Below are positions 8,707-47,856 of a stretch of 64,000 bases of DNA, one piece after another; position 1 is the stretch's first letter, and each line of letters begins with the position of its first letter. The stretch is from a bacterium (GTDB lineage Bacteria; Patescibacteriota; Minisyncoccia; UBA6257; UBA9933). The stretch is taken from positions 29,728 to 93,727 of the forward strand of contig JAJYHZ010000002.1 of assembly GCA_021796335.1 (NCBI GenBank). The letters are read 5' to 3'. The position numbers and the translations under genes are program-made. Below the pieces are notes generated by a model that saw only the letters and a list, made by a program, of their open reading frames with translations, was not told the DNA's origin and did not search any database.

Positions 8707-8780
8707 TGGCTGCCGGACTTGGATTCGAACCAAGATGAACGGATTCAGAGTCCGCTATCCTACCATTAGATGATCCGGCA
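8707..8780 (-). tRNA. tRNA-Gln (anticodon CUG), CCA encoded
   Basis: Reverse complement folds as a cloverleaf. Acceptor UGCCGGA/UCCGGCA with U1:A72, D-stem AUCU/GGAU, anticodon stem GCGGA/UCCGU with loop CUCUGAA, T-stem CUUGG/CCAAG with T-loop UUCGAAU, discriminator G then CCA. Confidence 0.8.
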
Positions 8781-8866: not shown

Positions 8867-9706
8867 TTACGAATTCTCAAGCTCTACGAGCTCGTTGATG
8901 AACTCGTAACTGCAGTAACACTTTTTTGAATCAAAAGTGTCAGGGAGGTTGGCGATGATTTCGGTTATGAGGTCCGGTACAGCGGCCTTCATCTTTTCCA
9001 TCATGGCATAAACTTCGTTTTCGTCCGGCCTGGCATTTTTGATGCCAGTTGCATAATTGGTAAGGAAGCAGATGCTTGCGTAATGCAAGCCTGCTTCCCT
9101 GGCAAGAGCGGCTTCGGGATGCAGCGTCATACTGACATAATCGCACCTCATTACCTGCAATGCCTTTACTTCGGCAGCGGTTTCAAATCGCGGCCCGTTT
9201 GTAACCGCAACGACACCCCCCGACATTGTCGGAATTTTTAACCGGGCCGCGGCCTTATATATGGTGTCCCGAATCTGCGGACAAAAAGGGCTGCTCATGT
9301 TGACGTGAGTCGCTTTCATAAGCACTTCCTTGCCTTTTCTTTTTATAATCTGGCCGTCAAAAAAAGTCTCCGGCCGACCATAACAGAATAAAGTGTTCAG
9401 ATCATCGGGCGTGGCAAGCCAACCGAGGTCAATGGCCGGATTAAGTACGCCAACGGCATTGAATGCGATAACCGCATCAACGCCAATTTTTTTAAGGGCA
9501 AGAATATTTGCCCTGTAGTTGACCTCATGAGGCGGCACTATGTGGTCTTCGCCGTGCCTGCTCAGAAAGTAAACCTGAGTTCCTTTTATGATTATTTCCT
9601 TCAGCATAACAAGCTTATCAGAAAAGCTTGTTATAATCCCACGCGGCAAAGAATCTGCCGCGAAATTCTTTTCAATACCTGTTCCCCCTATGATGCCTAT
9701 CTTCAT
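8867..9706 (-). CDS. mtnP: S-methyl-5'-thioadenosine phosphorylase (PNP/MTAP family)
   Basis: N-terminal KIGIIGGTG and SRHGEDHIVPPHEVNYRANILALK match MTAP signatures; 279 aa. Confidence 0.7.
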   Translation of the reverse strand: MKIGIIGGTGIEKNFAADSLPRGIITSFSDKLVMLKEIIIKGTQVYFLSRHGEDHIVPPHEVNYRANILALKKIGVDAVIAFNAVGVLNPAIDLGWLATPDDLNTLFCYGRPETFFDGQIIKRKGKEVLMKATHVNMSSPFCPQIRDTIYKAAARLKIPTMSGGVVAVTNGPRFETAAEVKALQVMRCDYVSMTLHPEAALAREAGLHYASICFLTNYATGIKNARPDENEVYAMMEKMKAAVPDLITEIIANLPDTFDSKKCYCSYEFINELVELENS

Positions 9707-9975
9707 TTTTAACCTCCTAAAATTTATTAAAATTCTAATATCTTAAATAACTTTTATCGGGCTAAAAGTCAAACGGTTGTATTATTGGAAAATAAATCCA
9801 ACTCTTCATTCTAATCCCGCCGGTTAACAGGCGAAGAATCTTTCATGCTTTTCGAGATCCTTCGCTTCGCTCAGGATGACGAAAATAATAATTTATCCTT
9901 TCCGAACAATAATAAATTAAATTCTTAAGGATATTTAAAAATGCTATAATTATATTTAGGTAGTGTGCATAGAAA

Positions 9976-10008
9976 CAAAAAAGCCCCTCACAGGCTTTTT
10001 TGTTTTTT
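9976..10008. terminator. bidirectional intrinsic terminator (aaaaaagcc-cctcaca-ggctttttt)
   Basis: Hairpin with an A-tract and a T-tract, immediately downstream of the pilin gene. Confidence 0.55.
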
Positions 10009-10026
10009 AAATTTAAATTTTGAAGA

Positions 10027-10452
10027 CTATCTCGTAACCGAAATTGGGTTGGTAACTTCTCCGGTTGCGCCAACAGTCGTTCTCCTGGTAGTCGGATCGT
10101 AAACCACGCTGTATCCTGTCGCAGTCGAAGTTCCGGTTGACGGATCCATGGGCATGACGGAGATATATGTCGGAACAATACACGGCTCTATATTATAATT
10201 ATTTGCTCCGCTTCCCAATTCCATTGTGGTGGTAGGTAATGCGCCTGCTCCGCAGGTGAAATTACCGTGATTGTCAACCATATTCTGGCCGATAGCATTC
10301 AAGATCGAGTTAACATTGCTCCATCTCTGCGTATCGCGCGCCTGGGCAAACTGCCTTGCCGGGTTAATGGCAACAATGACGACACCCGCCAAAATGGCGA
10401 TGATACCGATAACAACCAACAATTCGATCAATGTAAAACCTTTGTTTCTCAT
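10027..10452 (-). CDS. type IV pilin / pseudopilin, copy 1
   Basis: Class III signal peptide MRNKG|FTLIELLVVIGIIAILAGVV (Gly-1, Phe+1, Glu+5); 141 aa. Confidence 0.7.
   Translation of the reverse strand: MRNKGFTLIELLVVIGIIAILAGVVIVAINPARQFAQARDTQRWSNVNSILNAIGQNMVDNHGNFTCGAGALPTTTMELGSGANNYNIEPCIVPTYISVMPMDPSTGTSTATGYSVVYDPTTRRTTVGATGEVTNPISVTR
10034..10440. repeat. 407-bp direct repeat, copy A (pilin mature-domain coding sequence)
   Basis: 100% nucleotide identity to 10537-10943 by eye, offset 503 bp. Confidence 0.8.
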
Positions 10453-10529
10453 TTTTGTCTTTTGAATTTTTCCTCGACCTTTTCTTGATTATGATAAATT
10501 ATCCTATTTATAAAGTTTTATTGCAAGAA

Positions 10530-11042
10530 TTATCGGGTAACCGAAATTGGGTTGGTAACTTCTCCGGTTGCGCCAACAGTCGTTCTCCTGGTAGTCGGAT
10601 CGTAAACCACGCTGTATCCTGTCGCAGTCGAAGTTCCGGTTGACGGATCCATGGGCATGACGGAGATATATGTCGGAACAATACACGGCTCTATATTATA
10701 ATTATTTGCTCCGCTTCCCAATTCCATTGTGGTGGTAGGTAATGCGCCTGCTCCGCAGGTGAAATTACCGTGATTGTCAACCATATTCTGGCCGATAGCA
10801 TTCAAGATCGAGTTAACATTGCTCCATCTCTGCGTATCGCGCGCCTGGGCAAACTGCCTTGCCGGGTTAATGGCAACAATGACGACACCCGCCAAAATGG
10901 CGATGATACCGATAACAACCAACAATTCGATCAATGTAAAACCCGCGTCCGAATAACGCCCTACGGATGCGCCCATCAGAATTTTATTTTTAAATTTCGT
11001 CATATCACTAATATTCGCAAATCTGATTACGAATTTCACCAA
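10530..11042 (-). CDS. type IV pilin / pseudopilin, copy 2
   Basis: Mature domain identical to copy 1. Longer, atypical leader ...MGASVGRYSDAG|FTLIELL; the true start may be an internal Met at about 11003 or 10976. Confidence 0.65.
   Translation of the reverse strand: MVKFVIRFANISDMTKFKNKILMGASVGRYSDAGFTLIELLVVIGIIAILAGVVIVAINPARQFAQARDTQRWSNVNSILNAIGQNMVDNHGNFTCGAGALPTTTMELGSGANNYNIEPCIVPTYISVMPMDPSTGTSTATGYSVVYDPTTRRTTVGATGEVTNPISVTR
10537..10943. repeat. 407-bp direct repeat, copy B
   Basis: Identical to 10034-10440; identity stops exactly at the leader-peptide codon and at the last codon before the stop. Confidence 0.8.
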
Positions 11043-11200
11043 TCATAAATATATTTCTATCTTGTGATTATTTGTGTTTAATTCGCGTAGATTCGATAAT
11101 GCGTTTGCCGACTTTTATTTCCATTGAAATAAATTATCTTATTTATGAAAAATTATTGCAACTGCCTTGATTCCATTTACTGACAAATTTCTGCAAACCC

Positions 11201-11226
11201 AAATATTGAACGATCGTTCAATATTT
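11201..11226. promoter_or_regulatory. 26-bp perfect palindrome aaatattgaaCGATCGttcaatattt upstream of the pilin genes
   Basis: Perfect inverted repeat centred on CGATCG; member of a dispersed family (see findings). Confidence 0.5.
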
Positions 11227-11295
11227 AGATCGATTATTCACATTTACAAAAATGTAAATATACGCCTGCATAAATGAAATGGATAATCTCTTTAT

Positions 11296-12789
11296 TTATT
11301 TTAATTCGTCCCAGGAAATTATTTGGTACGTAGTCGATGTCAGCGGAAAATCGGGCGGCGGATTATACAGCAAATTAGAATCGTAAGTGATATTCCTGTT
11401 CTGATACCCGGTTCCGTCAGTGTAAGCGAATCCGTAACGCTGGTTGGACATAATCATGCCGTAAAGATTGATAGTCGATCTGATTGCGTATGGATTGCAC
11501 CTCGGTTGATTATTATATCCGGCTCTGTAGTAAAATCTCCCCACTCTTCCGTTTTGCGCAACTAAAGCGCCGTCTATGGTAAGCGTATCGGCGCTTTGCA
11601 GACCGACATCTATATCACCCTGAGATATCAAACCAAGAGAATCCTGGCCGTTAAAGTTGGAGTACAGCAGGTTGTTATTAATAATAATCTGCGGCCATTT
11701 TGCAGAATTTTCCGGAAAACGGGCAACGCCGATTGTAAGCCGGGCATTATTAATCTGTCCTTCCACCCAAAGATTATCTTCAACGAAAATTAAATTATCG
11801 GCGGGGAAATTATAATTTTTGACGAATTGCTCGCTTTTAATAGTCCACGTTCCCCAGTTTTGTTCTCCCAAAACACTGACGCAACCATTAGGCGAACTGA
11901 GAACGGAATTAACTTTGTATAAATCAAAAGTTCCGTCTGTTTTAAAAATTATATGATAGCCCTGGGCATTGGAGGGGCCGATGTAAATCCCGTTTGACTG
12001 GGCATCTGATTTCATCTGATTGAGATTGCTGGTTATGCCCGTAAAATCAACCGCGGGAACGGGAAATTGGCGGCCGGCCATAAAAACATCCGATCTGTTC
12101 ATAACGGGATTAGGCGGAGCTTCCAGCGGCCTGAAGGTGTCATTTTCTCCGGTCAACGGCGGAATATTAACATGAGTATGGACTCCAAACTCTTGGTTGC
12201 CCGAGTGATCCGGATCATTGTAGGCGGATAAAGCGCTGGAAACTATGTTATGTGCAAGGCCGTCGAAACGGATTCCGCCATTGGAGTAAATAGGACCGAA
12301 TACCTCCGTCCCCTGACCAAAGCGTATGTCCGAATTGGAAACTGTCGCATATTGCGCGAAAGAAGGAATCCCCATTTTCACCTGAATGATTTTTGAAACA
12401 GTCGGATCAGCGGTAACCGTGCCGGTTGATTTGATAATTACCAGAGTCGAACCTTGCGGCGGCGGAGTTATATCCAAACTGAATTGCCCTATCAAATTTC
12501 CACTTTTATCATAGTAGCTATGAATATAAGGTCCGGGATGGCCTGTGCCGTCTTGAAAATCCTGCGGCGCATGAGCCAAATGCCATCTGTAATATTCAAC
12601 GCCCGCTTCGGATATTTCAAAAGCCTGTTCATTATTCTCGTTGCGGACTGCGGCATTTATCATAGTGTTCGCCCACAACAGAAACCCGGAAAGCAAAATT
12701 ATCGCCAAAGCGCCGTAAAGTAAAATTTGGACGGAAAGCTGACCGTGAATAGTTTTTAGTTTACAGTTTTTAGATGTCAGGTTATTCAT
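11296..12789 (-). CDS. PilX-like pilus assembly / minor pilin protein
   Basis: N-terminal TM helix followed by NENNEQAFEISEAGVEY, resembling the PilX_N pattern (QQAFyAAEAGl); large C-terminal domain. Confidence 0.45.
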   Translation of the reverse strand: MNNLTSKNCKLKTIHGQLSVQILLYGALAIILLSGFLLWANTMINAAVRNENNEQAFEISEAGVEYYRWHLAHAPQDFQDGTGHPGPYIHSYYDKSGNLIGQFSLDITPPPQGSTLVIIKSTGTVTADPTVSKIIQVKMGIPSFAQYATVSNSDIRFGQGTEVFGPIYSNGGIRFDGLAHNIVSSALSAYNDPDHSGNQEFGVHTHVNIPPLTGENDTFRPLEAPPNPVMNRSDVFMAGRQFPVPAVDFTGITSNLNQMKSDAQSNGIYIGPSNAQGYHIIFKTDGTFDLYKVNSVLSSPNGCVSVLGEQNWGTWTIKSEQFVKNYNFPADNLIFVEDNLWVEGQINNARLTIGVARFPENSAKWPQIIINNNLLYSNFNGQDSLGLISQGDIDVGLQSADTLTIDGALVAQNGRVGRFYYRAGYNNQPRCNPYAIRSTINLYGMIMSNQRYGFAYTDGTGYQNRNITYDSNLLYNPPPDFPLTSTTYQIISWDELK

Positions 12790-13434
12790 TTAATCGTTTG
12801 TTCTTAAATTTCTCGGAGTGACGGAAGTGAAAAAAATTTCCGGAGCGGTTTGATTCGGCTCTTGGGCAATTAATCGTATCGAGACGGTTCTGATATTGGA
12901 AATGTTTATCGGATACGCCATCGGCGGCTCGCTACCATCATAACCAGAATCGTAATAAGTAAAAATACTGGATGTGCCCATCGCCATATTGTGAACCATT
13001 TCAGAAATTTGTTCGGAATTCGGATCGTAAACAAGCGGATTGCCCGCGGGCTTAATTACGCCTTTTTTAAATGTAGTGCCGTCCAAAAAATACCTGACCT
13101 GATCCGGAACTCCGTCTCCGTCAATGTCGCTGAAAAAAGTGATTGAACTTGTGGAAACTTGCGCTATGGCATACGCGCCGAGGCCGGACGATTCCATGGG
13201 ACGCATTTCCGACGCCATCGTCTCAAGAGTCTGCTGGGCTTCTTGTTGAGTTTCAAAACTTTGTGCCAAAGAAAGGCTGAAAGTCGAAATATTCGCGGAA
13301 AGAAGGAAAATCACGGCAATAATAACGACGAAAATAGCCGCGCTGACCAAAATTTCGATTAAAGTAAAACCTTTGGAATCAGAATTTGAAATACAAAATA
13401 TAGGATTTAGAGGTTTATGACATTTAATTTTCAT
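12790..13434 (-). CDS. minor pseudopilin (prepilin-type N-terminal domain, GspJ/PilW-like)
   Basis: SKG|FTLIEILVSAAIFVVIIAVIF class III signal after an unusually long leader; 214 aa. Confidence 0.5.
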   Translation of the reverse strand: MKIKCHKPLNPIFCISNSDSKGFTLIEILVSAAIFVVIIAVIFLLSANISTFSLSLAQSFETQQEAQQTLETMASEMRPMESSGLGAYAIAQVSTSSITFFSDIDGDGVPDQVRYFLDGTTFKKGVIKPAGNPLVYDPNSEQISEMVHNMAMGTSSIFTYYDSGYDGSEPPMAYPINISNIRTVSIRLIAQEPNQTAPEIFFTSVTPRNLRTND

Positions 13435-15118
13435 TTTGAGGCAAAGATTTTTTCTTCAGCGACTTGAAAATCAAAGCGCCAGCGACCAGCATAACGCCGA
13501 AGCCGACAATATAATAAATCAACGCCATAGGAAGCGATCCGCTCGCAACGCGCTGTTTATCGGGAATGGAAAACGATTTTGCGGAAGCAACTTTTTTATA
13601 AGCATTATTTCCTATTTTTTTATAAACTATCGCGTAATAATTTCCGGGTTTTAAATCGGCGGCGGCGGTGTAGTCGGCCGAGCCGGCGGAAATCTGTTTT
13701 ATTAGCTGACTTTTTGAATTAAAGATATCAATTCGAAATCCCTGATTCGATTCCGCGGAAGACGGCCAAGAAATCACGGCTGAGCTGTTTGAAGAACCGG
13801 AGCCGCTTCCGTTATTCGTGCTTATATTCAAATTCGGCGCCTGGCTTGATTGAGTTTGGGTGGCGGTAGCGGTTTGACTCGTTTGAGAAATTTGGCCGGT
13901 TTGATTGTTATCAGTAAAAGCCTGGGGATTGATCAACGAACCTTGAAGCGTATTAAAATTTAAGTATGCCTCCGCAAAATCGCCGGACGGATCGATGGAA
14001 ACAATCATAGCGACGTATTTAGTATCCGAACTCAAAACGTTTTCAGTAATAAGCAAATGCTCTAGTTCGTAAGTTTCATCGCCGACACTGGTAAGGGTTT
14101 GAGAACCCGGCTTATCCAGCCTAATCAACAAACTGGAGTTGGCGGCTTCGTTTGTTTCCCAGGAAATTTCCACGGAGCTGGTGCTTAAGGCGACAATCTG
14201 AGGATTGGAGATTGCGAGCTGAATCGCCGTGGAAGTGCTTTCATTGTTCGGCGCAGTAGATGAAGTCGTCGAGGCACTAGGCTGCCAGCCGGGCGAACTA
14301 ATGAAGGAACCTACGTAGCTTCCTTCATTTCCCCAATTGTCTTTTACAAAAAGCTGAAAAACATACGCGACATTAGGCATGACGGACAAATCCATACTAC
14401 ATGTTCCTAATCCGTACTGGCAGGTAAAATAATTCCCCGAATAATTCGTACTTTGAACAGCACTTTGATTTTCAAGCGGCCAATAAGAAATTTTATAATC
14501 AGCCGGCTCATTGGTATTGAAATTAATTCTGACGTCATTGGAATCCAAAACCGAAGGAATGACATTGGAAAGAATCGGAGCGGAAACATCGCCTGTTTCA
14601 TAAAGGGAGAAATTAAAAGTATAAGGCTGTTCATTCGAACCGAGATAAACCGGACCGATTTGCTTGTCTAAAGTATCGTTCGAATTCTGAACCTGTAATT
14701 GGACCATGTCGGTGTAATAAATTCTCAACTGAGGCATGGAACTTTTAATTTCGATTTTATAAGTTTGGTCGCTTGCAACCTTAACGGGAGAATTCAGTTC
14801 TACGTGAAATCTTTGGCCGCCCCAAGTTGTCGGAGCTATATACGGAACGGTTATTGTTTTAGAAGAAAGGATGTTATCACTATCATCAAGCAGAATAAAA
14901 GTTGCCTGTCCCGAAGAACTGGTATTCGCCAGAAAGAAATCAAATCCGCTCAAATAATCGTCGAATGGAATAAAAGTCTGATAAGGTGTTTGAGCCGAGG
15001 CTACAAACAAATAATCCGAAGTATACGGATTGTATTCATAATATTTCAATTCCGCGGCGGATGATAAGACCGGGATCGAAATTAAAATAAATAAAGTTAT
15101 AAAAATTTTTTTGGCCAT
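13424..15118 (-). CDS. secreted surface protein with a C-terminal TM anchor, possibly pilus-associated or an adhesin
   Basis: Signal peptide (FITLFILISIPVLSSAAE), S/T-rich extracellular repeats, C-terminal hydrophobic anchor plus KKK. Confidence 0.4.
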   Translation of the reverse strand: MAKKIFITLFILISIPVLSSAAELKYYEYNPYTSDYLFVASAQTPYQTFIPFDDYLSGFDFFLANTSSSGQATFILLDDSDNILSSKTITVPYIAPTTWGGQRFHVELNSPVKVASDQTYKIEIKSSMPQLRIYYTDMVQLQVQNSNDTLDKQIGPVYLGSNEQPYTFNFSLYETGDVSAPILSNVIPSVLDSNDVRINFNTNEPADYKISYWPLENQSAVQSTNYSGNYFTCQYGLGTCSMDLSVMPNVAYVFQLFVKDNWGNEGSYVGSFISSPGWQPSASTTSSTAPNNESTSTAIQLAISNPQIVALSTSSVEISWETNEAANSSLLIRLDKPGSQTLTSVGDETYELEHLLITENVLSSDTKYVAMIVSIDPSGDFAEAYLNFNTLQGSLINPQAFTDNNQTGQISQTSQTATATQTQSSQAPNLNISTNNGSGSGSSNSSAVISWPSSAESNQGFRIDIFNSKSQLIKQISAGSADYTAAADLKPGNYYAIVYKKIGNNAYKKVASAKSFSIPDKQRVASGSLPMALIYYIVGFGVMLVAGALIFKSLKKKSLPQNEN

Positions 15119-16965
15119 TATTGCGTAAGCTGCACGTTATATTGCATCCAATTGTTGGAAATGTAAACAGAAGGATTGTTGAAAGTCTGATAGCCGGATT
15201 TTTGGACAGTCAAAGAATAACTGCCTGAAGCCAATCCGCTGAAAAACGCCTGACCGTCGGGAACGCAACCGGAAGAAAAATTTATTTTCGTATCGGCCAA
15301 TGAAGGAGTATAGCCGGCATCTTGGGTTTGCAGATAAACTTTATACCGCAAATAACGATTGCCGTTTTCGATTGAATTTATCTGAGCCCCGCTTGTCGAG
15401 TAATAAGTGTTTGGCGTTCCGTCAGGCCCGACAAAATTCCAAGTGGCGTTGTCGTTGTTTGCGGCGATTTGAAATTGCAAACTCTGCGATCCGGTTTGCA
15501 ACGGTTGGTTTTGCGGATCCCATTCGATATCGTCAAAAGTCGTGTTGGAAGATCCCAGATCAAAGGTGTTCGAAATCAGCCACTGCGTACTGGTCGCATA
15601 TAATCCGTTGTTTTGCGCCAGTGTAATTATTCCGGGAGTCGAAGTGGCATCGATATTGCCGCTTTGGGAATTGTAAGAAGACCCGTTCGACCAATCGGTC
15701 TGAGAAATATTATATCTGCCGGTGTATAAATTCTGGTTAAAACCTCCGCTTAAAAGCGAAACTTCGGCATCATTGACCGGGTTGCCGCTCTGATCTTCGA
15801 CCGTAACCAGAAGTTCCTGAGGTTTTTTAGGCGCCATAATCAAGCTTAAATTGCTCGACGTATTCGGGTTTACGGCCAGCGGCAACAGCGGAATGGAACC
15901 GGCAATATCATAATTGGAATCCTGGCTAAATAAGCTATAAGAATCCCATTCCAGATTATTAGTCGAATAGGCGCCCAACGAATCCGTAGTGAATGAATTT
16001 GAATATTTCAAGACATTCGGATTTGTTCCTATTAATTTCGTCCCCCCTTGAAGCAAGCTGACACTCGGGATCGGTGAACAAAAATAATCATTGGTTTTTA
16101 AAGATAAAGAACTTACTTTATCAATGGCAAAACTGATGGTCGTAATCTGCTGGGAAGCAACAGTGGCATCCGGTTTGACCGGATTGGGATTTGAAGCGCC
16201 GCCCGGCGGATAAGTCTGATCGGACGAATAGCCGGATTTGTTTACCGAAATCGAATATGACGCCGTGCTTGTCGGAATATCAATCAACTGTAAAACGCCA
16301 TCATTATTAGTGGTGTCATTTATGGAGATTGCCGGATTCAAGCTGCCGTTATAAACATGGACGTTGGCGTTGCTGACGGGATTGCCAGAAGCATCAATGA
16401 CATTAACGAAAAGCGAACCGTTTTGGGAAGAAGTCTCCAGGCCCTTGGGAGCGACTGTCGTAGTCATGGTAAAAGGAACGAAATTGGAATTCATACAAGT
16501 CTGGCAACTGATCTGAAATTCAACCATTTTATAATCCGCTGGAGAAGTGTCGGTCGGAGCAAGGCCGTCAAAAGGATCGTCGATATTGCGCACAGTCGCG
16601 GAAACCAAATAATTGTTTCCGGCGAAAGAAACGGTTGTCGTGGCCGGTATTTTTCCCGGTGGATAACCGCCCATGATTCCGACATCCTGATAGTTCATAT
16701 CGCGGATAATTTCGATTTGATTCTGCAAAACCGAGACAGCATCGAACCGCGTTTCATTTTTGGAAGAAATCTGTAATACGTCAGAAAATGCCATAAAAAC
16801 CGCATAAGAAATCAGTAAGAACAAACCCGTAGCAACCAGAACTTCAATAAGGGTGAAGCCTTTGCCATTATTGTAAGATTGCAAGATTGAAAAATTGAAA
16901 GATTTTATTTTTTCTTTTATTCTGCGCATTTTAAAAATCTGCAATTTGCAATCCGCGATTTGCAA
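15118..16965 (-). CDS. large pseudopilin (prepilin N-terminus plus a large C-terminal domain, PilY1/minor-pilin-like)
   Basis: NNGKG|FTLIEVLVATGLFLLISYAVF class III signal; the likely real start is the Met at 16929 (MRRIKEK...). Confidence 0.5.
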   Translation of the reverse strand: MQIADCKLQIFKMRRIKEKIKSFNFSILQSYNNGKGFTLIEVLVATGLFLLISYAVFMAFSDVLQISSKNETRFDAVSVLQNQIEIIRDMNYQDVGIMGGYPPGKIPATTTVSFAGNNYLVSATVRNIDDPFDGLAPTDTSPADYKMVEFQISCQTCMNSNFVPFTMTTTVAPKGLETSSQNGSLFVNVIDASGNPVSNANVHVYNGSLNPAISINDTTNNDGVLQLIDIPTSTASYSISVNKSGYSSDQTYPPGGASNPNPVKPDATVASQQITTISFAIDKVSSLSLKTNDYFCSPIPSVSLLQGGTKLIGTNPNVLKYSNSFTTDSLGAYSTNNLEWDSYSLFSQDSNYDIAGSIPLLPLAVNPNTSSNLSLIMAPKKPQELLVTVEDQSGNPVNDAEVSLLSGGFNQNLYTGRYNISQTDWSNGSSYNSQSGNIDATSTPGIITLAQNNGLYATSTQWLISNTFDLGSSNTTFDDIEWDPQNQPLQTGSQSLQFQIAANNDNATWNFVGPDGTPNTYYSTSGAQINSIENGNRYLRYKVYLQTQDAGYTPSLADTKINFSSGCVPDGQAFFSGLASGSYSLTVQKSGYQTFNNPSVYISNNWMQYNVQLTQ

Positions 16966-16979
16966 TTTTAAGGTTTAGT

Positions 16980-18059
16980 TTATTTAACTTTTATGTTTTG
17001 GGTAAGGCTGTAAATCGGGGTAATAATTGCCAGAACGACAAATCCCACGATTACTCCCATAACCACCAACAGTACCGGCTCCAAAATGCTGGATAAATTT
17101 TTTGTAGTTTCATCTAATTCGTTCTCATAGTACTCGGAAAGATAAAAAAGATTGGAGTCCAAATTGCCGGTTTTTTCCCCCACTTCGATCATTCTGGTCA
17201 AGGTTCCGGGGAAATATTTGGAATATCTTTCCAGGCTGCGATAAAACATTTCGCCCTTGCGGACCTCTTCCGACGCTTCTTTTAAGACTTGTTTGTAAGC
17301 GGTGTTCGCAACTATAGTAGAAGTGATGGAAATTGCCTCGACTATTTTCACTCCGTTTTTTAAAAGAAGGGCGAAAGTCCGGCTGATATTGGCCATGTTG
17401 TACGAAACCGTTATGCTGCCGACCACGGGCAGATATAAAAGAGTTTTATCATAAAACTTTTTTATTCCGGGAAGTCTCATTAAAAAAGAGAGGCCTATAA
17501 TAAAGACAAACAGACCGATAACAATATAAAGGAAATCATTCTGAAGCATATTCGAAACGCCAATCAGGATTTTAGTGGTAATTGGCAAATCGATTTTCAT
17601 AGCTAAAAAAACCGGCATGATTTTCGGCAAAATAAAAAATACCAAAGCAGCCACGACGGCAAGGGTGGCGACTAAAATGACGGCGGGGTAAATCAAAGCT
17701 GAACGGACTTTTGACCGCAATTGCTGGCTTTTTTGCAGCTCGCCGGCGAGATAATTCAGGCTTTCAGGCAAAGTCCCGCTGATTTCTCCCACTCTGATTA
17801 TGCTTACGAACAAATCGCCGAAAATATTTTTATATTGTTCCAATGCCTCGGAAAGAAGCTGTCCATTCTGAATTTTGACGATTACATCGTCAAGAATCGA
17901 CCCGAAACCGCGGCTTTTTACCTGGGATCTGATTAAGTTAATACTTTCAACTTCTGCCATTCCCGATTTAATCATCATCGAAAGATGCTTGGCAAAAAGC
18001 ATTTTTTCGGCAAGAGGAACTTTTAGAAAAAAATTGAAATTGAGATTTAAGTTTTTCAT
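16980..18059 (-). CDS. pilC: type IV pilus / T2SS platform protein PilC/GspF family
   Basis: Two GspF-type repeats, 3 TM segments, 359 aa. Confidence 0.7.
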   Translation of the reverse strand: MKNLNLNFNFFLKVPLAEKMLFAKHLSMMIKSGMAEVESINLIRSQVKSRGFGSILDDVIVKIQNGQLLSEALEQYKNIFGDLFVSIIRVGEISGTLPESLNYLAGELQKSQQLRSKVRSALIYPAVILVATLAVVAALVFFILPKIMPVFLAMKIDLPITTKILIGVSNMLQNDFLYIVIGLFVFIIGLSFLMRLPGIKKFYDKTLLYLPVVGSITVSYNMANISRTFALLLKNGVKIVEAISITSTIVANTAYKQVLKEASEEVRKGEMFYRSLERYSKYFPGTLTRMIEVGEKTGNLDSNLFYLSEYYENELDETTKNLSSILEPVLLVVMGVIVGFVVLAIITPIYSLTQNIKVK

Positions 18060-18284
18060 TCAGCACATAACTTCTCCGATTTTCTATTGCATAAGGCGCA
18101 ATCAAACCAGGAAATTAAGATTTATTTTTAAAATTTTAATTCTCATTTATAACTATTCTTAAGAGAAGTTATGCATGGAATGAATCCCTTATATGACTTC
18201 TCTTATTTTAATTATATAAAAAGTTAAAAAAATTAATTTATAATTCCATTATAATTATTTTTAAAAAAATATGTATGAAAAATT

Positions 18285-19511
18285 TTATTCATGGATAACT
18301 CTGATAACTTCTTCGATCGTGGTGATTCCATCAACCGCTTTTTTAAAACCGTCTTCAACCATAGTGGTCATTCCTTCATGAAATGCGATTTTTTTAATAT
18401 CGGAAGCCCCTTTGCGAGTGATAATCGCTTCTCGAATGGCTTCCGTGACCTCCAAAATTTCGTAGATGCCGACACGACCGTAATAGCCGCTTCCGTTGCA
18501 TTTTTTACAACCTTTTCCATAATAAAATTTTTCTGTTTGCCTTACCAATTCCGGCGAGATTCCGGAACTGAGCAGAATTTCTAGTTCGGACATGGAATAT
18601 TTTTTTTCCGTTTTGCATTCCGTGCAAATCTTTCTTACCAAACGCTGGCCTATGGCGATATTGACGGTTGAAGCGATAAGAAAAGGCTCTACCTTCATAT
18701 CCAAAAGCCGAGGCAAGGTAGTGGCCGCGTCATTGGTATGGATTGTGGACAATAATAAGTGCCCGGTCAAGGCAGCATTAACGGCGATTGAAGCGGTTTC
18801 TTCATCGCGAATTTCACCGACCATAATAATGTTCGGATCCTGGCGCAAAATCGCGCGCAACCCGTCGGCGAAAGTAAGGCCGGTTTGATTATTGACTTGA
18901 ATTTGATCAATTCCTTCCAAGGAAAATTCGATTGGATCCTCGATTGTAATAATAGAAGTTTCCGGGGTATTCAAAACTTTCAAAATAGTGTAAAGGGAAG
19001 TCGTTTTTCCGGAACCAGTAGGACCAGTGGCAAGAATCATCCCATATGGCCTGGAAATCGCTCTTTTGACTTTGGGTAAATCATTCCCGGAAAAGCCGAG
19101 ATCTTCCAAGGTTAAGGTGTCGGCGGATTCGGTCAAAAGCCTCATGACCACGTTTTCATCATAATAAGTCGGAACTATGGAAACGCGCATGTCAAACTTT
19201 TCTTTTTTGGAAGTAATAAATTGAAAACGCCCGTCCTGCGCCATTTGATGCTCGTCGGTTCGAAGTCCGGACAGAACTTTTATGCGGCTGATAACCTCCG
19301 ACTGAATTTCTTTTGGCAGAGTAAAAGCGATATGCATAACGCCGTCAATCCGAAACCTGATATTGACGCCAGTTTCAGTCGGGTCTATATGAATATCAGA
19401 AGCCCGGGAATAGTAGGCGTCCTCTATAAGGGAATTAACGATTTTAATAATCGAAATTTCGCCTTTGGGACGAGCTAATTCCTTTTCTATGGAAAGATGG
19501 TCGAATTCCAT
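18285..19511 (-). CDS. short PilB/GspE/ComGA-family assembly ATPase
   Basis: Walker A ATGPTGSGKTT, Asp box, His box, tetracysteine CTEC...CKKC; lacks the N-terminal N1 domain (408 aa). Confidence 0.7.
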   Translation of the reverse strand: MEFDHLSIEKELARPKGEISIIKIVNSLIEDAYYSRASDIHIDPTETGVNIRFRIDGVMHIAFTLPKEIQSEVISRIKVLSGLRTDEHQMAQDGRFQFITSKKEKFDMRVSIVPTYYDENVVMRLLTESADTLTLEDLGFSGNDLPKVKRAISRPYGMILATGPTGSGKTTSLYTILKVLNTPETSIITIEDPIEFSLEGIDQIQVNNQTGLTFADGLRAILRQDPNIIMVGEIRDEETASIAVNAALTGHLLLSTIHTNDAATTLPRLLDMKVEPFLIASTVNIAIGQRLVRKICTECKTEKKYSMSELEILLSSGISPELVRQTEKFYYGKGCKKCNGSGYYGRVGIYEILEVTEAIREAIITRKGASDIKKIAFHEGMTTMVEDGFKKAVDGITTIEEVIRVIHE

Positions 19512-22928: not shown

Positions 22929-22951
22929 AAAATCCGCCGAAGCGGATTTTT
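22929..22951 (-). terminator. terminator hairpin aaaaatccgcc-gaag-ggcggattttt at the 3' end of rnpB
   Basis: Perfect stem with a T-tract on the minus strand. Confidence 0.55.
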
Positions 22952-23036
22952 AGGCAAGTAGTAGGCCGGATTCTGTTTCTAAGCGATAATTTATCTGGGT
23001 CCGCCATTACTGGCGGACTCAAGCGGCACCCCCATA

Positions 23037-23158
23037 CGCACCTCACTAAAGTTCGGTGCTCAATTTCCAATCGGCCTAATTTCTAATTTTCTAAAATTTA
23101 GAAAATTAGGTTGATTAGGACCTAGAATAATCCGAGCATCTCGCCTTGGTGAGATGCG
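23037..23158. repeat. 122-nt element with terminal inverted repeats, copy 1 (inside rnpB, P15-17 region)
   Basis: Identical to 23411-23533 except for a 1-nt indel. Termini cgcacctcac ... gtgagatgcg are inverted repeats; internal long palindrome cctaatttctaattttctaaaatttagaaaattagg. Confidence 0.75.
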
Positions 23159-23410
23159 ACGGGTACGGCCTTGCACCCAATAAGGATTTAGCCGTTTCAC
23201 CCCTGGCGTTTCCGTCAAGGCTATTCCCGAAGGAATTTCCAATCCTTTCGGATTAGAACGTCTCTGCTCGCACCTCTCACATTGCTGCGGCCGGCTGTTA
23301 GCCAGTATCTTTTTAATCCATTGCCTTTTAGTTAAGAGAAGTTGCTTGGATTTAACCAAACAAATTTCATATAAAAAGCGCTGGAATAAGTGTCCGGACC
23401 TTCCTCTCGC

Positions 23411-23533
23411 GCGCACCTCACTAAAGTTCGGTGCTCAATTTCCAATCGGCCTAATTTCTAATTTTCTAAAATTTAGAAAATTAGGTTGATTAGGACCTAG
23501 AATAATCCGAGCATCTCGCCTTGGTGAGATGCG
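23411..23533. repeat. 123-nt element with terminal inverted repeats, copy 2 (inside rnpB at the P3 position)
   Basis: As copy 1; sits between the putative P2 5' strand and the P4 5' strand. Confidence 0.75.
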
Positions 23534-44276: not shown

Positions 44277-44813
44277 TTACCAGCAAGTTGCACCGGAATC
44301 GTAATATGCCCAAGCTGTCGGATTAGAACCATCAATAAAACAGTTTTTGGCGCCGCCATCCCTGGCGGGATCTAAAAGGCTGGGATATTTTAAATAATCC
44401 GAAGCACTATTCTCGCTTATATAAATATCCAACAGTTTGTAATCGGCTCCGTCTGACTTATACACATAACAGGAAGTATTGGCGCCAGTATCCATTTGCG
44501 GATCTGCTGGAAAATTCGCCAAATAAATCGGGGTCAAACCGGGTATTACGTTTGTTGCTGAATAACTTCCCCATGCGCCACATTGGCTTCTCCATTTTCC
44601 GTTCGTATCCGGGTATGCTCCGTTATCTAAGTTATAATTTTGCAAGGCTTTGTTTATGACTTCTAAATCCGAAATTCTTTTTGCGTTTCTCGAGTTTTTG
44701 AGCAATTGATTTGGATTTAAAATCAAAACCGTAATCGTTGCCAAAACAGCCAAAATAGCGATAACGATCAGAAGCTCAAGTAAAGTGAATCCTTTATAAA
44801 ATTTGTGAGCCAT
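44277..44813 (-). CDS. type IV pilin
   Basis: MAHKFYKG|FTLLELLIVIAILAVLATI class III signal; four Cys in the C-terminal domain. Confidence 0.65.
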   Translation of the reverse strand: MAHKFYKGFTLLELLIVIAILAVLATITVLILNPNQLLKNSRNAKRISDLEVINKALQNYNLDNGAYPDTNGKWRSQCGAWGSYSATNVIPGLTPIYLANFPADPQMDTGANTSCYVYKSDGADYKLLDIYISENSASDYLKYPSLLDPARDGGAKNCFIDGSNPTAWAYYDSGATCW

Positions 44814-46194: not shown

Positions 46195-47856
46195 ATGCTT
46201 GATAAAAATATTATTTCAAAATTGTCGAGAATCAGGCGGGAGTCCGAAGAAAGGACGGTGAGCCGCCGCGCAGCAAAAATCGGAAAAAAGTATTTAAATC
46301 TTTCCACGACTCCGATCACCATAGAAGCTTTGGCAATATTGCCGGAAGCCGTTGCAAAAGAAGCCGGCATTGTTGTAATTGAAAAAAAGGCCAATAGAAT
46401 TGCCGTTGCCGCAATCGACCCGAAAAATGCCAAAACGGAAAAAGTCATAAGAGACTTGGAAAATAATTACGGCGTAACGGTTTTCGTAGTTTCGGAAAGC
46501 AGCCTTAAATACGCCTTGGATTATTACAAATTCGCCGAAAAACAAACAGAAGATATTACTGGCGAAATTTCGGCCAAGAAAAAGGAAATTAAAGAAGAGG
46601 ATTTGCTGACTTTGGACGGCATAAAAAAATTCCTGGACAAAGAAGAATTGTCGGGAAGCAAAGCAAACGAAATTTTGGAAATTATTTTCAAAGGAGCTTT
46701 AGCGAACAGAGCTTCCGACATACATTTCGAGCCGACGGGAAAAGAGGCAAAATTACGATTAAGAATTGACGGACTCTTGCATGATGTTTACACATTCGAG
46801 CTTAAATTTTATTCGTTCATCGTTTCGCGCATCAAATTGCTTTCCGGCCTTAAATTGAACGTTTCCAACGAACCGCAGGATGGTCGCTTTACAATCAGCT
46901 TTACGCAAAAAGACGTCGAAGTGCGCGTGGCAGTGGCGCCGGCGCAATTCGGCGAAGTCATCGTCATGCGCTTGCTTGATCCGGACGCGATCAATCTGGA
47001 CTTAAAACAATTAGGATTGCGAGAAGACGATTTGGAGATAATCGAAAAAGAACTGAAGCGGCCAAACGGACTTATTTTGAATACCGGTCCGACGGGTTCC
47101 GGAAAAACAACCACTCTTTACGCATTCTTACAGCATAAAAAAACTCCGGAAATAAAAATAATTACAATCGAAGATCCAATTGAATATCGCATAAGCGGAA
47201 TCGAACAGACTCAGGTGGATGAGGAATCGGGATATGATTTCGCATCGGGATTAAAATCTTTAATGCGGCAGGATCCGGACATAATCCTGGTAGGTGAAAT
47301 CCGCGACAAGGAAACCGCCGAAATCGGCATACAGGCGGCTTTGACCGGTCATTTGGTTTTTTCCACAGTTCACGCTAATTCCGCAAGCGGCGCCGTTCCC
47401 CGCTTGCTTGATTTAAACGTCAAGCCAGTTAGTATCGGCCCGGCCTTGAATTTAATAATCGGGCAAAGACTGGTCCGCCGTCTTTGCGCAAACTGCCGAA
47501 TTCCAAAAACAGCTACGAATGATTTGGAAGATAAAGTAAATAATTTTTTGAGAAAATTACCCGGCCGGGTAAATAAAGATGATTATAAAGAAATAAAATT
47601 GTTTGAGGCGAAAGGATGCCCTGCTTGCAACGGAACTGGATTCAAGGGACGCATCGCCATTTATGAACTTTTAAAAACCGCTCCGGAAATGGAAGATTTG
47701 ATTATCAAACAAACCGGGGAAACCGCGATTTATAGATTCGCAGTCGGGAATGGCATGACGACTATGCAACAGGACGGGATTTTGAAAGTGATTTCCGGAA
47801 TAACGACTTTTAATGAGGTGGAAAATGTGACCGGACCGATTGAATGGGAAGAATAG
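46195..47856 (+). CDS. pilB: type IV pilus assembly ATPase PilB/GspE (full length)
   Basis: N1 domain, Walker A GPTGSGKTTT, Asp/His boxes, tetracysteine CANC...CPAC; 553 aa. Confidence 0.8.
   Translation: MLDKNIISKLSRIRRESEERTVSRRAAKIGKKYLNLSTTPITIEALAILPEAVAKEAGIVVIEKKANRIAVAAIDPKNAKTEKVIRDLENNYGVTVFVVSESSLKYALDYYKFAEKQTEDITGEISAKKKEIKEEDLLTLDGIKKFLDKEELSGSKANEILEIIFKGALANRASDIHFEPTGKEAKLRLRIDGLLHDVYTFELKFYSFIVSRIKLLSGLKLNVSNEPQDGRFTISFTQKDVEVRVAVAPAQFGEVIVMRLLDPDAINLDLKQLGLREDDLEIIEKELKRPNGLILNTGPTGSGKTTTLYAFLQHKKTPEIKIITIEDPIEYRISGIEQTQVDEESGYDFASGLKSLMRQDPDIILVGEIRDKETAEIGIQAALTGHLVFSTVHANSASGAVPRLLDLNVKPVSIGPALNLIIGQRLVRRLCANCRIPKTATNDLEDKVNNFLRKLPGRVNKDDYKEIKLFEAKGCPACNGTGFKGRIAIYELLKTAPEMEDLIIKQTGETAIYRFAVGNGMTTMQQDGILKVISGITTFNEVENVTGPIEWEE

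Follow-up and report, generated by a model that had tools for sequence, protein, structure and literature searches.

Two adjacent genes of an uncultivated member of the Patescibacteria (CPR) encode one and the same major type IV pilin. They are probably a real tandem pair, produced by an old duplication and recently homogenised by gene conversion or unequal exchange. Within the window, by which we mean the whole 64,000-nucleotide stretch of DNA analysed here, the two genes share 407 nt at 100% identity (exact-match extension; positions 10034–10440 and 10537–10943, offset by 503 nt). This pilin repeat is the longest exact repeat of the 64-kb window, the runner-up measuring 122 nt.

The pilin pair and its operon

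Both copies are major, T4a-like type IV pilin genes with a class III signal, and they end a type IV pilus operon with the following features.

10027–10452, minus strand: pilin gene copy 1, the downstream copy (141-aa prepilin, leader MRNKG, stop TAG; from the ORF list)
10530–11003, minus strand: pilin gene copy 2, the upstream copy (157 aa from ATG 11003, leader MTKFKNKILMGASVGRYSDAG, stop TAA; from the ORF list and the leader-length distribution)
11296–19511, minus strand: type IV pilus operon upstream of the pilin pair (Pfam scan; gene order the same in independent contigs)
16980–18059, minus strand: T2SSF platform protein (Pfam, 5e-54)
18285–19511, minus strand: T2SSE ATPase (Pfam, 1e-126)

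The pair lies at the 3′ end of the operon, co-oriented with the T2SSE and T2SSF genes and separated from them by three N_methyl or large accessory genes. Further operon members encode a 615-aa pilin-like protein (N_methyl and CarboxypepD_reg), a 564-aa protein, a 214-aa pilin-like protein and a 497-aa protein. No prepilin peptidase (Peptidase_A24) gene was found among the window ORFs scanned, which lie outside 56.4–62.8 kb.

Both copies read ...G|FTLIELLVVIGIIAILAGVVIVAI, with Gly at −1, Phe at +1 and Glu at +5 ahead of a ~20-residue hydrophobic helix, and both match the N_methyl Pfam family PF07963 above its 21.2-bit cut-off (1.2e-8 and 34.6 bits for copy 1; 3.7e-8 for copy 2). G5, F6 and E10 are invariant in a 19-sequence alignment of the family, as are C67 and C91, and phmmer matched residues 6–118 to PDB chain 6xxd_A (molecule name PilA; E 4.3e-5). 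Copy 1 has more than 5000 homologues in Patescibacteria; they reach 80% identity, and their leaders are short and basic (MKSKG and MKEKG, for example). Its predicted cleavage between G5 and F6 leaves a mature pilin of 136 aa. The same 136 residues make up the mature part of copy 2, and if both prepilins are cut at G|F they would yield a single mature protein.

The start of copy 2 is most plausibly placed at ATG 11003, which gives a form of 157 aa that is also the ENA gene call (P0001). Its longest open ORF spans 10530–11042 on the minus strand, with alternative starts at ATG 10976 (148 aa, leader MGASVGRYSDAG), GTG 11039 (169 aa, the NCBI call) and TTG 11042 (170 aa); NCBI calls the pair as 169-aa and 134-aa forms. 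Neither candidate ATG is preceded by a Shine-Dalgarno motif, which only 7 of 46 window genes possess. From ATG 11003, leader 2 (MTKFKNKILMGASVGRYSDAG) is basic, 21 aa long and carries Gly at −1. The first-pass annotation had called this leader long and atypical. It is indeed unlike the short basic leaders of the closest homologues, but leaders measured from the nearest ATG in this pilin family range from 3 to 21 aa, so leader 2 falls within the range.

An identical tract between diverged flanks

The repeat and the elements upstream of each gene are listed below.

10034–10440, minus strand: repeat copy R1 (407 nt, starting with the Gly−1 codon and ending on base two of copy 1's last sense codon but one; exact-match extension)
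10537–10943, minus strand: repeat copy R2 (same sequence as R1; exact-match extension)
10474–10482, minus strand: AAAGGTCGA box in the copy 1 5′ UTR, a motif common to pilin upstream regions across the Patescibacteria pilin family
10498–10526, minus strand: promoter-like site P1 (TTGCAA-17-GATAAT), 5′ of copy 1 (promoter scan; within a 33-nt block 85% identical to the P2 region)
10944–11132, minus strand: copy 2-specific 5′ region, its start similar to the UTR of copy 1 and bearing a degenerate box (AAAAGTCGG), followed by ~135 extra nt in which the leader 2 codons lie (gapped alignment)
11133–11161, minus strand: promoter-like site P2 (TTGCAA-17-GATAAT), 5′ of copy 2 (promoter scan, repeat family D2, gapped alignment)

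The earlier claim that the two segments are identical base for base was confirmed over exactly 407 nt, but the edges given for them had to be moved. Identity was said to begin at the Phe+1 codon, yet the Gly−1 codon GGT (10438–10440 in copy 1, 10941–10943 in copy 2) lies inside the repeat as well. At the 3′ end, identity does not run to one codon before the stop; it breaks off two bases into the Thr codon, which lies two codons upstream of the stop. The terminal codons are ACG AGA TAG in copy 1 and ACC CGA TAA in copy 2, with only synonymous differences between the sense codons. The differing Arg codons (AGA/CGA) and stops were thus correctly reported, but the flanks, also described as different, are partly homologous. 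A 33-nt promoter-like block (10494–10526 against 11129–11161) is 85% identical, with weaker likeness over ~65 nt, and in a gapped alignment the promoter and UTR of the two copies at the 5′ edge are homologous at only ~80–85%.

Inside the tract there are no differences in 407 nt, compared with 85% identity in the promoter block and a change in each of the three terminal codons (Thr, Arg and stop). The repeat holds ~98 synonymous sites, none of which differs between the copies; had these sites diverged by 15%, the rate of the flanking block, the probability of observing no differences would be ~1e-7. To judge by such figures, the identity of the repeat is not of chance origin. The protein nearest to the mature pilin other than its twin is 80% identical by alignment (77% by BLASTP), whereas the copies are mutually 100% identical. 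Because homologous flanks have diverged while ~98 synonymous sites have not, we favour an older tandem duplication that was recently homogenised.

The following course of events would account for these features. An older duplication may have copied the whole unit of promoter, 5′ UTR, gene and stop, after which the flanks diverged and the upstream copy gained ~135 nt, altering its UTR and leader. Later, homologous recombination, by gene conversion or unequal exchange, would have homogenised the stretch from the Gly−1 codon almost to the stop, the homogenised tract ending where flanking homology gives out. The first-pass annotation had proposed recent gene conversion in place of an old duplication. 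Conversion is the best supported of the options it listed, but the diverged flanks and the synonymous differences indicate that it acted on a duplication that was already old.

A very recent simple tandem duplication, with no conversion and with flank differences arising later or at the junction, would also explain the perfect identity of the repeat. The assemblies of this population are otherwise 100% identical, suggesting a short time scale, and in closer relatives the operon ends with just one pilin gene. A simple event, however, makes one new junction and leaves the units identical over the whole 503-nt period, and here both edges differ: three consecutive codons at the 3′ edge, and at the 5′ edge a promoter and UTR of only ~80–85% homology along with the ~135 extra nt of copy 2. 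So much change in a flank of ~100 nt against none in 407 nt is very unlikely, and we regard a young duplication as improbable.

Scans of genomes and metagenomes revealed no close relative with the same pair (best matches 71% in genomes and 74% in metagenomes), and an exact 27-mer from the repeat had no match in JGI metagenomes. The data accordingly fit either recurrent concerted evolution or a single conversion event. Thirteen loci from other Patescibacteria genomes or metagenomes have a second pilin-family match at the same locus, ~11 of them directly adjacent. Where the copies of such tandem pilins are full-length and can be compared, they are 49–87% identical at the DNA level and share exact runs of 47–227 nt.

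Non-reciprocal transfer between adjacent pilin genes also recalls Neisseria pilE/pilS, in which many divergent, promoterless, 5′-truncated donor cassettes and a G4-forming element create pilin diversity. A comparable arrangement, in which an expressed locus and a donor cassette exchange sequence to vary the pilus, has next to no probability here. The pair shares with pilE/pilS the evidence of non-reciprocal sequence transfer between pilin copies, but it consists of two complete, identical genes. Each is full length, has its own promoter-like site and start codon and encodes the N-terminal helix, and exchange between identical copies makes no variants. The window contained no further full copy or partial cassette of the pilin; apart from the pair, tblastn matched only two minor pilins and a pilin-like gene of 32% identity. 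Neither strand carried a G4 motif (four G3 runs spaced by N1–7) within 9000–12500. With no cassettes in the window, no G4 motif within that interval and no diversity, we rejected antigenic variation; the cassette-like recombination proposed earlier is likewise not supported.

The spacer and the tandem in other assemblies

A single feature separates the two repeat copies.

10441–10536, minus strand: spacer J, unique, 96 nt (window self-comparison)

Read in the direction of the genes, J opens with the end of copy 2 (the third base of the Thr codon, the Arg codon and TAA). The 5′ part of copy 1 follows: P1, then the AAAGGTCGA box, the 5′ UTR and the codons for MRNK. Within the window J matches nothing but itself, the 33-nt promoter block excepted. 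The UTR and leader that it carries are like those found upstream of related pilin genes at two other loci (L097 and L098), which marks J as sequence of ancestral type and not as an artefact of a junction.

The window is 100% identical to GCA_027334705.1 across the 17.5 kb compared. In two other assemblies the contigs break inside the repeat, on both sides and exactly k or k−1 bases in: MEGAHIT k141 contigs (L003, L008) stop after 141 nt, and Logan k31 contigs (L004, L010) after 30 nt. Breaks of this kind at both ends are what would be expected if two paths enter the repeat and two leave it. Two NCBI contigs carry the gene pair, with copy 1 called at 134 aa. These contigs, of 276,864 and 276,964 nt, have lengths that fit the two MEGAHIT contigs joined via exactly two copies, minus 64 or 14 nt per end. 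On the separate 122-nt repeat, the same assembly agrees exactly with an independent k141 contig. The evidence for copy number and for R-J-R linkage is this assembly-graph behaviour, together with contigs that perhaps derive from the same read sets.

Four short contigs of 2.2–6.3 kb (L001, L005, L006, L009) instead contain one hybrid copy, U2-R-D1, with the upstream part of copy 2 and the downstream part of copy 1. They are otherwise 100% identical to the window, the sole mismatch being in L001 at position 8737, within a tRNA gene. Such contigs are either a repeat collapsed at low coverage or a real 503-bp deletion allele.

These single-copy contigs could be taken to mean that only one pilin gene is real and that the second was produced by the assembler or by the joining of strains or loci. 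A perfect 407-nt repeat is longer than reads and k-mers, the 141-aa copy 1 protein is without a record, and none of the gene fragments expected from a separate contig of J and its repeat flanks has appeared. The look-up returned no exact record of the 141-aa protein because the NCBI gene call starts at an internal TTG (134 aa). A search for fragments of a J contig (48-aa C-terminal, and 51-aa N-terminal against a set of 5.8 billion proteins) found no exact fragment, but this is uninformative, because the expected k141 contig would be ~378 nt and the smallest recorded contigs are ~480 nt. Against an artefact, the 96-nt J is unique and beyond an assembler's invention, with its ATG, its family-typical MRNKG leader, its conserved AAAGGTCGA box and its promoter-like site. 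The repeat flanks J on both sides, which is possible only in a tandem; independent MEGAHIT and Logan contigs end k or k−1 bases into the repeat at both ends; and both NCBI contigs have two copies. We therefore consider a single real gene highly unlikely.

Of the two assembly errors that the first-pass annotation had left open, a duplicated assembly is unlikely in view of the biological-looking J, the breaks on both sides and the pair on two NCBI contigs. Collapse or deletion does occur elsewhere, in the four single-copy contigs. The locus breaks or collapses in 6 of the 8 assemblies examined, and short-read breakage and collapse of this kind imply that identical tandem pilins are probably under-counted in metagenome-assembled genomes.

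Expression, instability and comparable systems

Two further features bound the pair.

9973–10005, minus strand: terminator-like hairpin of intrinsic type, 3′ of copy 1 (14-bp stem with U-run; −17.1 kcal/mol, z −3.86)
11201–11226, no strand assigned: perfect 26-nt palindrome AAATATTGAACGATCGTTCAATATTT, located after the 497-aa gene's stop and before P2

As judged from their sequences, the copies are shown to differ solely in promoter, UTR and leader. Since the mature pilins are identical, the pair can have only a dosage effect or allow differential expression of one subunit; antigenic or functional diversity is not possible. The region 3′ of copy 2 has no terminator-like hairpin comparable to that of copy 1 (folding z 0.06), so its transcripts should read into copy 1, which would then be transcribed both by this read-through and from its own promoter-like site P1. 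The hairpin 3′ of copy 1 also gives partial Rfam matches to terminator stems.

Upstream of the genes, the motif A[AG]GGTCG was found within 120 nt of Gly−1 in 46 of 135 family pilin genes, against a background of 0.109 per kb. Rfam scans, one of the whole window at the gathering threshold and one of 9700–11350 at permissive settings, yielded no riboswitch or leader RNA in either 5′ region, the only hits being terminator-like partial matches. The copy 2 5′ region has no likeness elsewhere in the window or in the fetched loci, and its folding is not unusually stable (z −1.4). The palindrome AAATATTGAACGATCGTTCAATATTT occurs once in the window and elsewhere only in contigs of the same population; it is possibly an operator.

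Several traits of copy 2 would fit a gene that is non-functional or poorly expressed, its 5′ end disrupted by an insertion and its identity kept by passive conversion from copy 1. Where copy 1 has the AAAGGTCGA box, copy 2 has a degenerate AAAGTCGG. The ~135 extra nt match nothing elsewhere, the leader departs from those of the closest homologues, and the start codon is uncertain. The frame is nevertheless open from a basic MTKFKNK start through Gly−1, leaders of 12–21 aa exist in the family, the gene still has a stop and a promoter-like site, and its last codons depart from those of copy 1 at synonymous positions only. Moreover, should the single-copy contigs be real alleles, the one gene left in them carries the 5′ end of copy 2, and this end must work. 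A defective copy 2 is, on balance, unlikely.

A direct repeat of 407 bp should make the locus recombinationally unstable. If one repeat crossed over with the other, 503 bp would be lost and one hybrid gene would remain, with the upstream part of copy 2 and the downstream part of copy 1. The predicted deletion product has the exact structure of the four hybrid contigs. Tandem duplications and amplifications in bacteria are unstable in general, with units gained and lost by RecA-mediated recombination between direct repeats. The pair resembles them in that a perfect 407-bp repeat predicts frequent loss of a unit, and the hybrid contigs have the expected deletion structure, but its diverged flanks show that it is neither fresh nor transient.

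The pattern also resembles concerted evolution by RecA-dependent gene conversion, as in tufA/tufB of Salmonella and E. coli and in multiple rRNA operons. There, as here, coding sequences stay identical or nearly so between flanks and regulatory sequences that differ, each paralogue has its closest relative in the other and not in an orthologue, and the tract ends with the homology. Unlike those genes, the pilin copies are adjacent (503-nt period), making unequal crossover or deletion as likely as conversion, and their product is a secreted filament subunit whose cleavable leader lies outside the tract.

Neighbouring or tandem major pilin paralogues have been described as PilA1/PilA2 in Legionella (PMC13170364), PilA4/PilA5 in Thermus (PMC7203116) and PilA1/PilA2 in Saccharibacteria (PMC11623550), and tandem pilins also occur at Patescibacteria loci L018, L022, L057, L069 and L071. 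All share at least two co-oriented genes with a class III signal and helix beside pilus assembly genes. The described paralogues, however, are different mature pilins with different roles or filaments, whereas the present pair encodes one mature protein. A literature search for identical tandem pilins returned only general papers on gene conversion, and one for the assembly and run accessions gave no hits. The pair is real but fairly ordinary, and it leaves the current view of pilins and gene conversion unchallenged.

A more speculative reading, to which we attach only a small probability, is that the pair acts as a recombinational switch for one pilin, in which exchange between the repeats reversibly adds or removes a unit with a canonical promoter, AAAGGTCGA box and short leader. 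Cells would thereby shift between two doses of the gene, and also between canonical control and control through P2, the extended 5′ region and leader 2 with its 21 aa. Leader 2 might itself alter when, or how efficiently, the prepilin is processed. Such a switch would have as its signature two-copy and hybrid single-copy contigs coexisting in a population that is otherwise identical.

In Patescibacteria, host attachment and movement depend centrally on type IV pili (PMC11623550). A doubled major pilin with the same mature sequence and a different promoter, UTR and leader would point to tuning of the dosage or regulation of the filament subunit, and not to variation of the filament surface.

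Two pilin genes with an identical mature region

Exact-match extension across the window shows that positions 10034–10440 and 10537–10943 are identical over 407 nt without any mismatch, at an offset of 503 nt, as the first-pass annotation had claimed; the runner-up among exact repeats in the 64-kb window reaches 122 nt at most. The edges of this identity had been drawn slightly differently, at Phe+1 and one codon before the stop, but codon reading places the Gly-1 codon GGT (10438–10440; 10941–10943) inside the repeat, and the 3′ limit falls at the second base of the penultimate sense codon, a Thr codon. The final codons read ACG AGA TAG in copy 1, the downstream gene, and ACC CGA TAA in copy 2, the upstream gene, encoding the same two residues followed by a different stop. 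Both genes match PF07963, the prepilin N-terminal methylation motif, and a Pfam scan places them as the last genes of a type IV pilus operon on the minus strand.

Features of the pilus operon, in order of transcription
18285–19511, minus: T2SSE ATPase, first listed gene
16980–18059, minus: T2SSF platform protein, second
third in order, minus: pilin-like protein of 615 aa with a CarboxypepD_reg domain
fourth in order, minus: 564-aa protein
fifth in order, minus: pilin-like protein of 214 aa
sixth in order, minus: 497-aa protein, followed by copy 2 and copy 1
11161–11133: promoter-like site TTGCAA-17-GATAAT upstream of copy 2 (promoter scan)
end at 10530, frame open upstream to 11042, minus: pilin copy 2 (ORF list)
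10526–10498: promoter-like site TTGCAA-17-GATAAT upstream of copy 1 (promoter scan)
10027–10452, minus: pilin copy 1, ORF of 141 aa, N-terminus MRNKG/FTLIELLVVIG
9973–10005: hairpin with a 14-bp stem and U-run after copy 1 (folding −17.1 kcal/mol, z −3.9)

Folding of the region after copy 2 shows no terminator-type hairpin comparable to that of copy 1. The pilin belongs to a large family that is well conserved in Patescibacteria (5797 matches), with a best unrelated match of 77% identity by BLASTP (80% in the alignment), invariant G-1, F+1, E+5 and two Cys residues, and the PilA chain 6xxd_A as closest solved relative (E 4e-5). The remaining window genes, including ParA/ParB, ClpB, PGK, a MurD-like protein and ribosomal protein S16, are a typical small-genome mix. 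A third pilin-like gene with an N_methyl motif (44277–44813, minus; 178 aa, with 32% identity to the major pilin) and a second, PilB-like T2SSE ATPase with an MshEN N-domain (46195–47856, plus) lie 34–36 kb from the operon. A possible operator is the perfect 26-nt palindrome AAATATTGAACGATCGTTCAATATTT at 11201–11226, located after the stop of the 497-aa gene and before the promoter-like site of copy 2; it occurs once in the window and in none of the unrelated loci fetched. Among Hainich groundwater contigs, L012 and L014 match L011 and L013 and share the same pilin (P0014), differing in the genes between a 587-aa pilin-like gene and the major pilin, which suggests a variable accessory-gene segment in their pilus operon.

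The tandem in assemblies of the population

Neighbouring proteins were used to recover eight assemblies of the same population. Contig DAHWUH010000001.1 of GCA_027334705.1 equals the window at 100% over the 17.5 kb compared, and two NCBI contigs (276,864 and 276,964 nt) carry both pilin genes. The locus is split in ERZ27233565 (MEGAHIT), where contigs end at 10803 and start at 10174, each 141 nt (= k) into the repeat, and in SRR13170411 (Logan), where they end at 10914 and start at 10063, 30 nt (= k−1) into it. Breaks at both repeat edges imply that, in those read sets, two different sequences enter the repeat and two leave it. Between the repeats, spacer J (10441–10536, 96 nt) has no second occurrence in the window; it contains a promoter-like site, a conserved UTR box and an ATG that opens a leader typical of the family, and is closely similar to regions upstream of related pilin genes in two other Patescibacteria loci (L097 and L098). 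The first-pass suggestion of a duplicated assembly is not supported, given the unique J, the breaks k or k−1 nt inside the repeat and the two NCBI contigs with both genes. An artefact behind the pair is very improbable, as J is a segment that no assembler can make and that fits only between two repeat copies.

Joining the two MEGAHIT contigs via two repeat copies gives 276,992 nt in total, of which the NCBI contigs fall short by 2 × 64 and 2 × 14 nt; these shortfalls fit two assemblies with k values of 77 and 127 (deduced from the lengths) that each traversed the loop once. At a repeat of 122 nt elsewhere, the same assembly and an independent k141 contig are in exact agreement. We conclude that the tandem is real; judging from short-read graphs, some cells may hold copies beyond these two.

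The 122-nt repeat involves an RNase P RNA gene (22947–23371, minus), which matches RF00010 with E 8e-19 and 63 bits, short of the gathering score of 100. Its segment 23037–23158 recurs exactly at 23412–23533, 375 nt away and just upstream of the gene, and this structure is real, since the independent MEGAHIT k141 contig L177 has an identical one.

Four contigs of the population (L001; L005, from GCA_021836325.1; L006; L009) have one pilin gene each, arranged as copy 2 upstream region, repeat and copy 1 downstream region, and are elsewhere 100% identical to the window save one L001 mismatch at 8737, in a tRNA gene. They are short (2.2–6.3 kb), probably reflecting low coverage. Their structure is either the expected product of a crossover between the repeats, with 503 bp deleted, or the graph output when the J path is missing or pruned. 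If real, the single-copy allele must be derived from the tandem, because an ancestral-type J is not regenerable from a single-copy locus.

Proposed duplication and homogenisation

Both promoter-like sites sit in a 33-nt block that is 85% identical between copies, beyond which gapped similarity continues ~35 nt further into the UTR, followed by ~135 extra nt in copy 2. Three codons in a row differ at the 3′ edge, leaving the protein unchanged. A simple tandem duplication yields two units identical over the whole period, here 503 nt. A young duplication without conversion would give identical genes, but the unit edges are homologous yet diverged, and the ~98 synonymous sites of the repeat hold no differences, with a chance of ~1e-7 at the flanks' 15% divergence; we consider it quite unlikely. 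The best reading of the sequence is an old duplication of promoter and gene, after which gene conversion or unequal exchange would have recently homogenised the coding part. The sharp identity boundaries would then mark the ends of homology, at the 5′ end through insertion or replacement before Gly-1.

Closer relatives have a single pilin gene at the operon end. Among the loci retrieved from genomes and metagenomes of other Patescibacteria, 13 have a second pilin-family match, directly adjacent in about 11 of them, including two arrays of three. Where full-length comparison is possible, these tandem copies share 49–87% DNA identity; their longest exact run is 227 nt, and such runs fall mainly in the conserved 5′ half. 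None of the tandem loci compared holds a pair identical over the whole mature region. Short-read assemblies break or collapse such pairs, as at this locus, so their under-representation is to be expected. In arrays of two or three genes (L057 1771–3450, L071 3001–4526, L018, L022 and L069), 5′ halves share exact runs of at most 227 nt and 3′ halves differ, a mosaic that either partial gene conversion or a strongly constrained N-terminal helix could account for.

Leaders, 5′ regions and proposed role

Leader 1, MRNKG, is the family norm (compare MKSKG, MKEKG and MKQG). For copy 2, the nearest in-frame start, ATG 10976, gives the leader MGASVGRYSDAG (net charge 0), and the next, ATG 11003, gives MTKFKNKILMGASVGRYSDAG (net charge +3), the form called in ENA (P0001, 157 aa). 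The first-pass description of this leader as long and atypical holds in part: a basic leader of 21 aa ending in Gly at −1 is unusual among the closest homologues, but lies within the family range, since nearest-ATG leaders run from 3 to 21 aa (~30% with at least 11 aa; 140 family genes in fetched loci). Scoring 46 gene starts in the window revealed no Shine-Dalgarno motif at copy 2, which says little because only 7 of the 46 genes have one. Many of these genes carry a TATAAT-like box within ~10 nt of the ATG, which suggests that mRNAs are often leaderless or have very short leaders. No Rfam family matched the long 5′ region of copy 2, and its predicted fold is not unusually stable.

In this Patescibacteria family, major-pilin genes (loci L011–L031 and L097–L164) are preceded by a conserved box, A(A/G)GGTCG(A), placed 7–25 nt downstream of a TATAAT-like box, with ~25–60 nt separating it from the ATG. 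Of 135 genes, 46 have the box in the 120 nt preceding Gly-1 (background 0.109 per kb). It is intact in copy 1 (10474–10482, minus) and degenerate, AAAAGTCGG, near 11100 (minus) in copy 2. It is possibly a 5′-UTR or promoter-proximal regulatory site.

At the sequence level, we show that both genes are complete, that their mature coding sequences are identical, that each has its own promoter-like site and that only copy 1 is followed by a terminator-like hairpin. Both copies would be expressed, with copy 2 transcripts running on into copy 1; that copy 2, with a promoter-like site of its own, is a passive and poorly expressed duplicate seems unlikely. Both prepilins would be cut at the predicted G/F site to the same 136-aa subunit, so that expression of the pair would raise or tune major pilin supply without diversification; a variation system of the pilE/pilS type is barely credible. 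Recombination between the repeats would keep the copies identical, with occasional loss or gain of a unit.

Gene conversion between duplicated bacterial genes is known from tufA/tufB and Neisseria pilE/pilS. Described tandem pilin paralogues include Legionella PilA1/PilA2 (PMC13170364) and Thermus PilA4/PilA5 (PMC7203116); the two major pilins of Saccharibacteria, PilA1 and PilA2, each belong to a separate pilus system (PMC11623550). Our locus is a simple combination of such paralogues with such conversion, and we found no description in the literature of two pilin genes that differ in leader but are identical over the entire mature region. The pair is a new instance of known processes and no new kind of system; in practice, it mainly teaches that metagenome assemblies break up or collapse loci of this sort.
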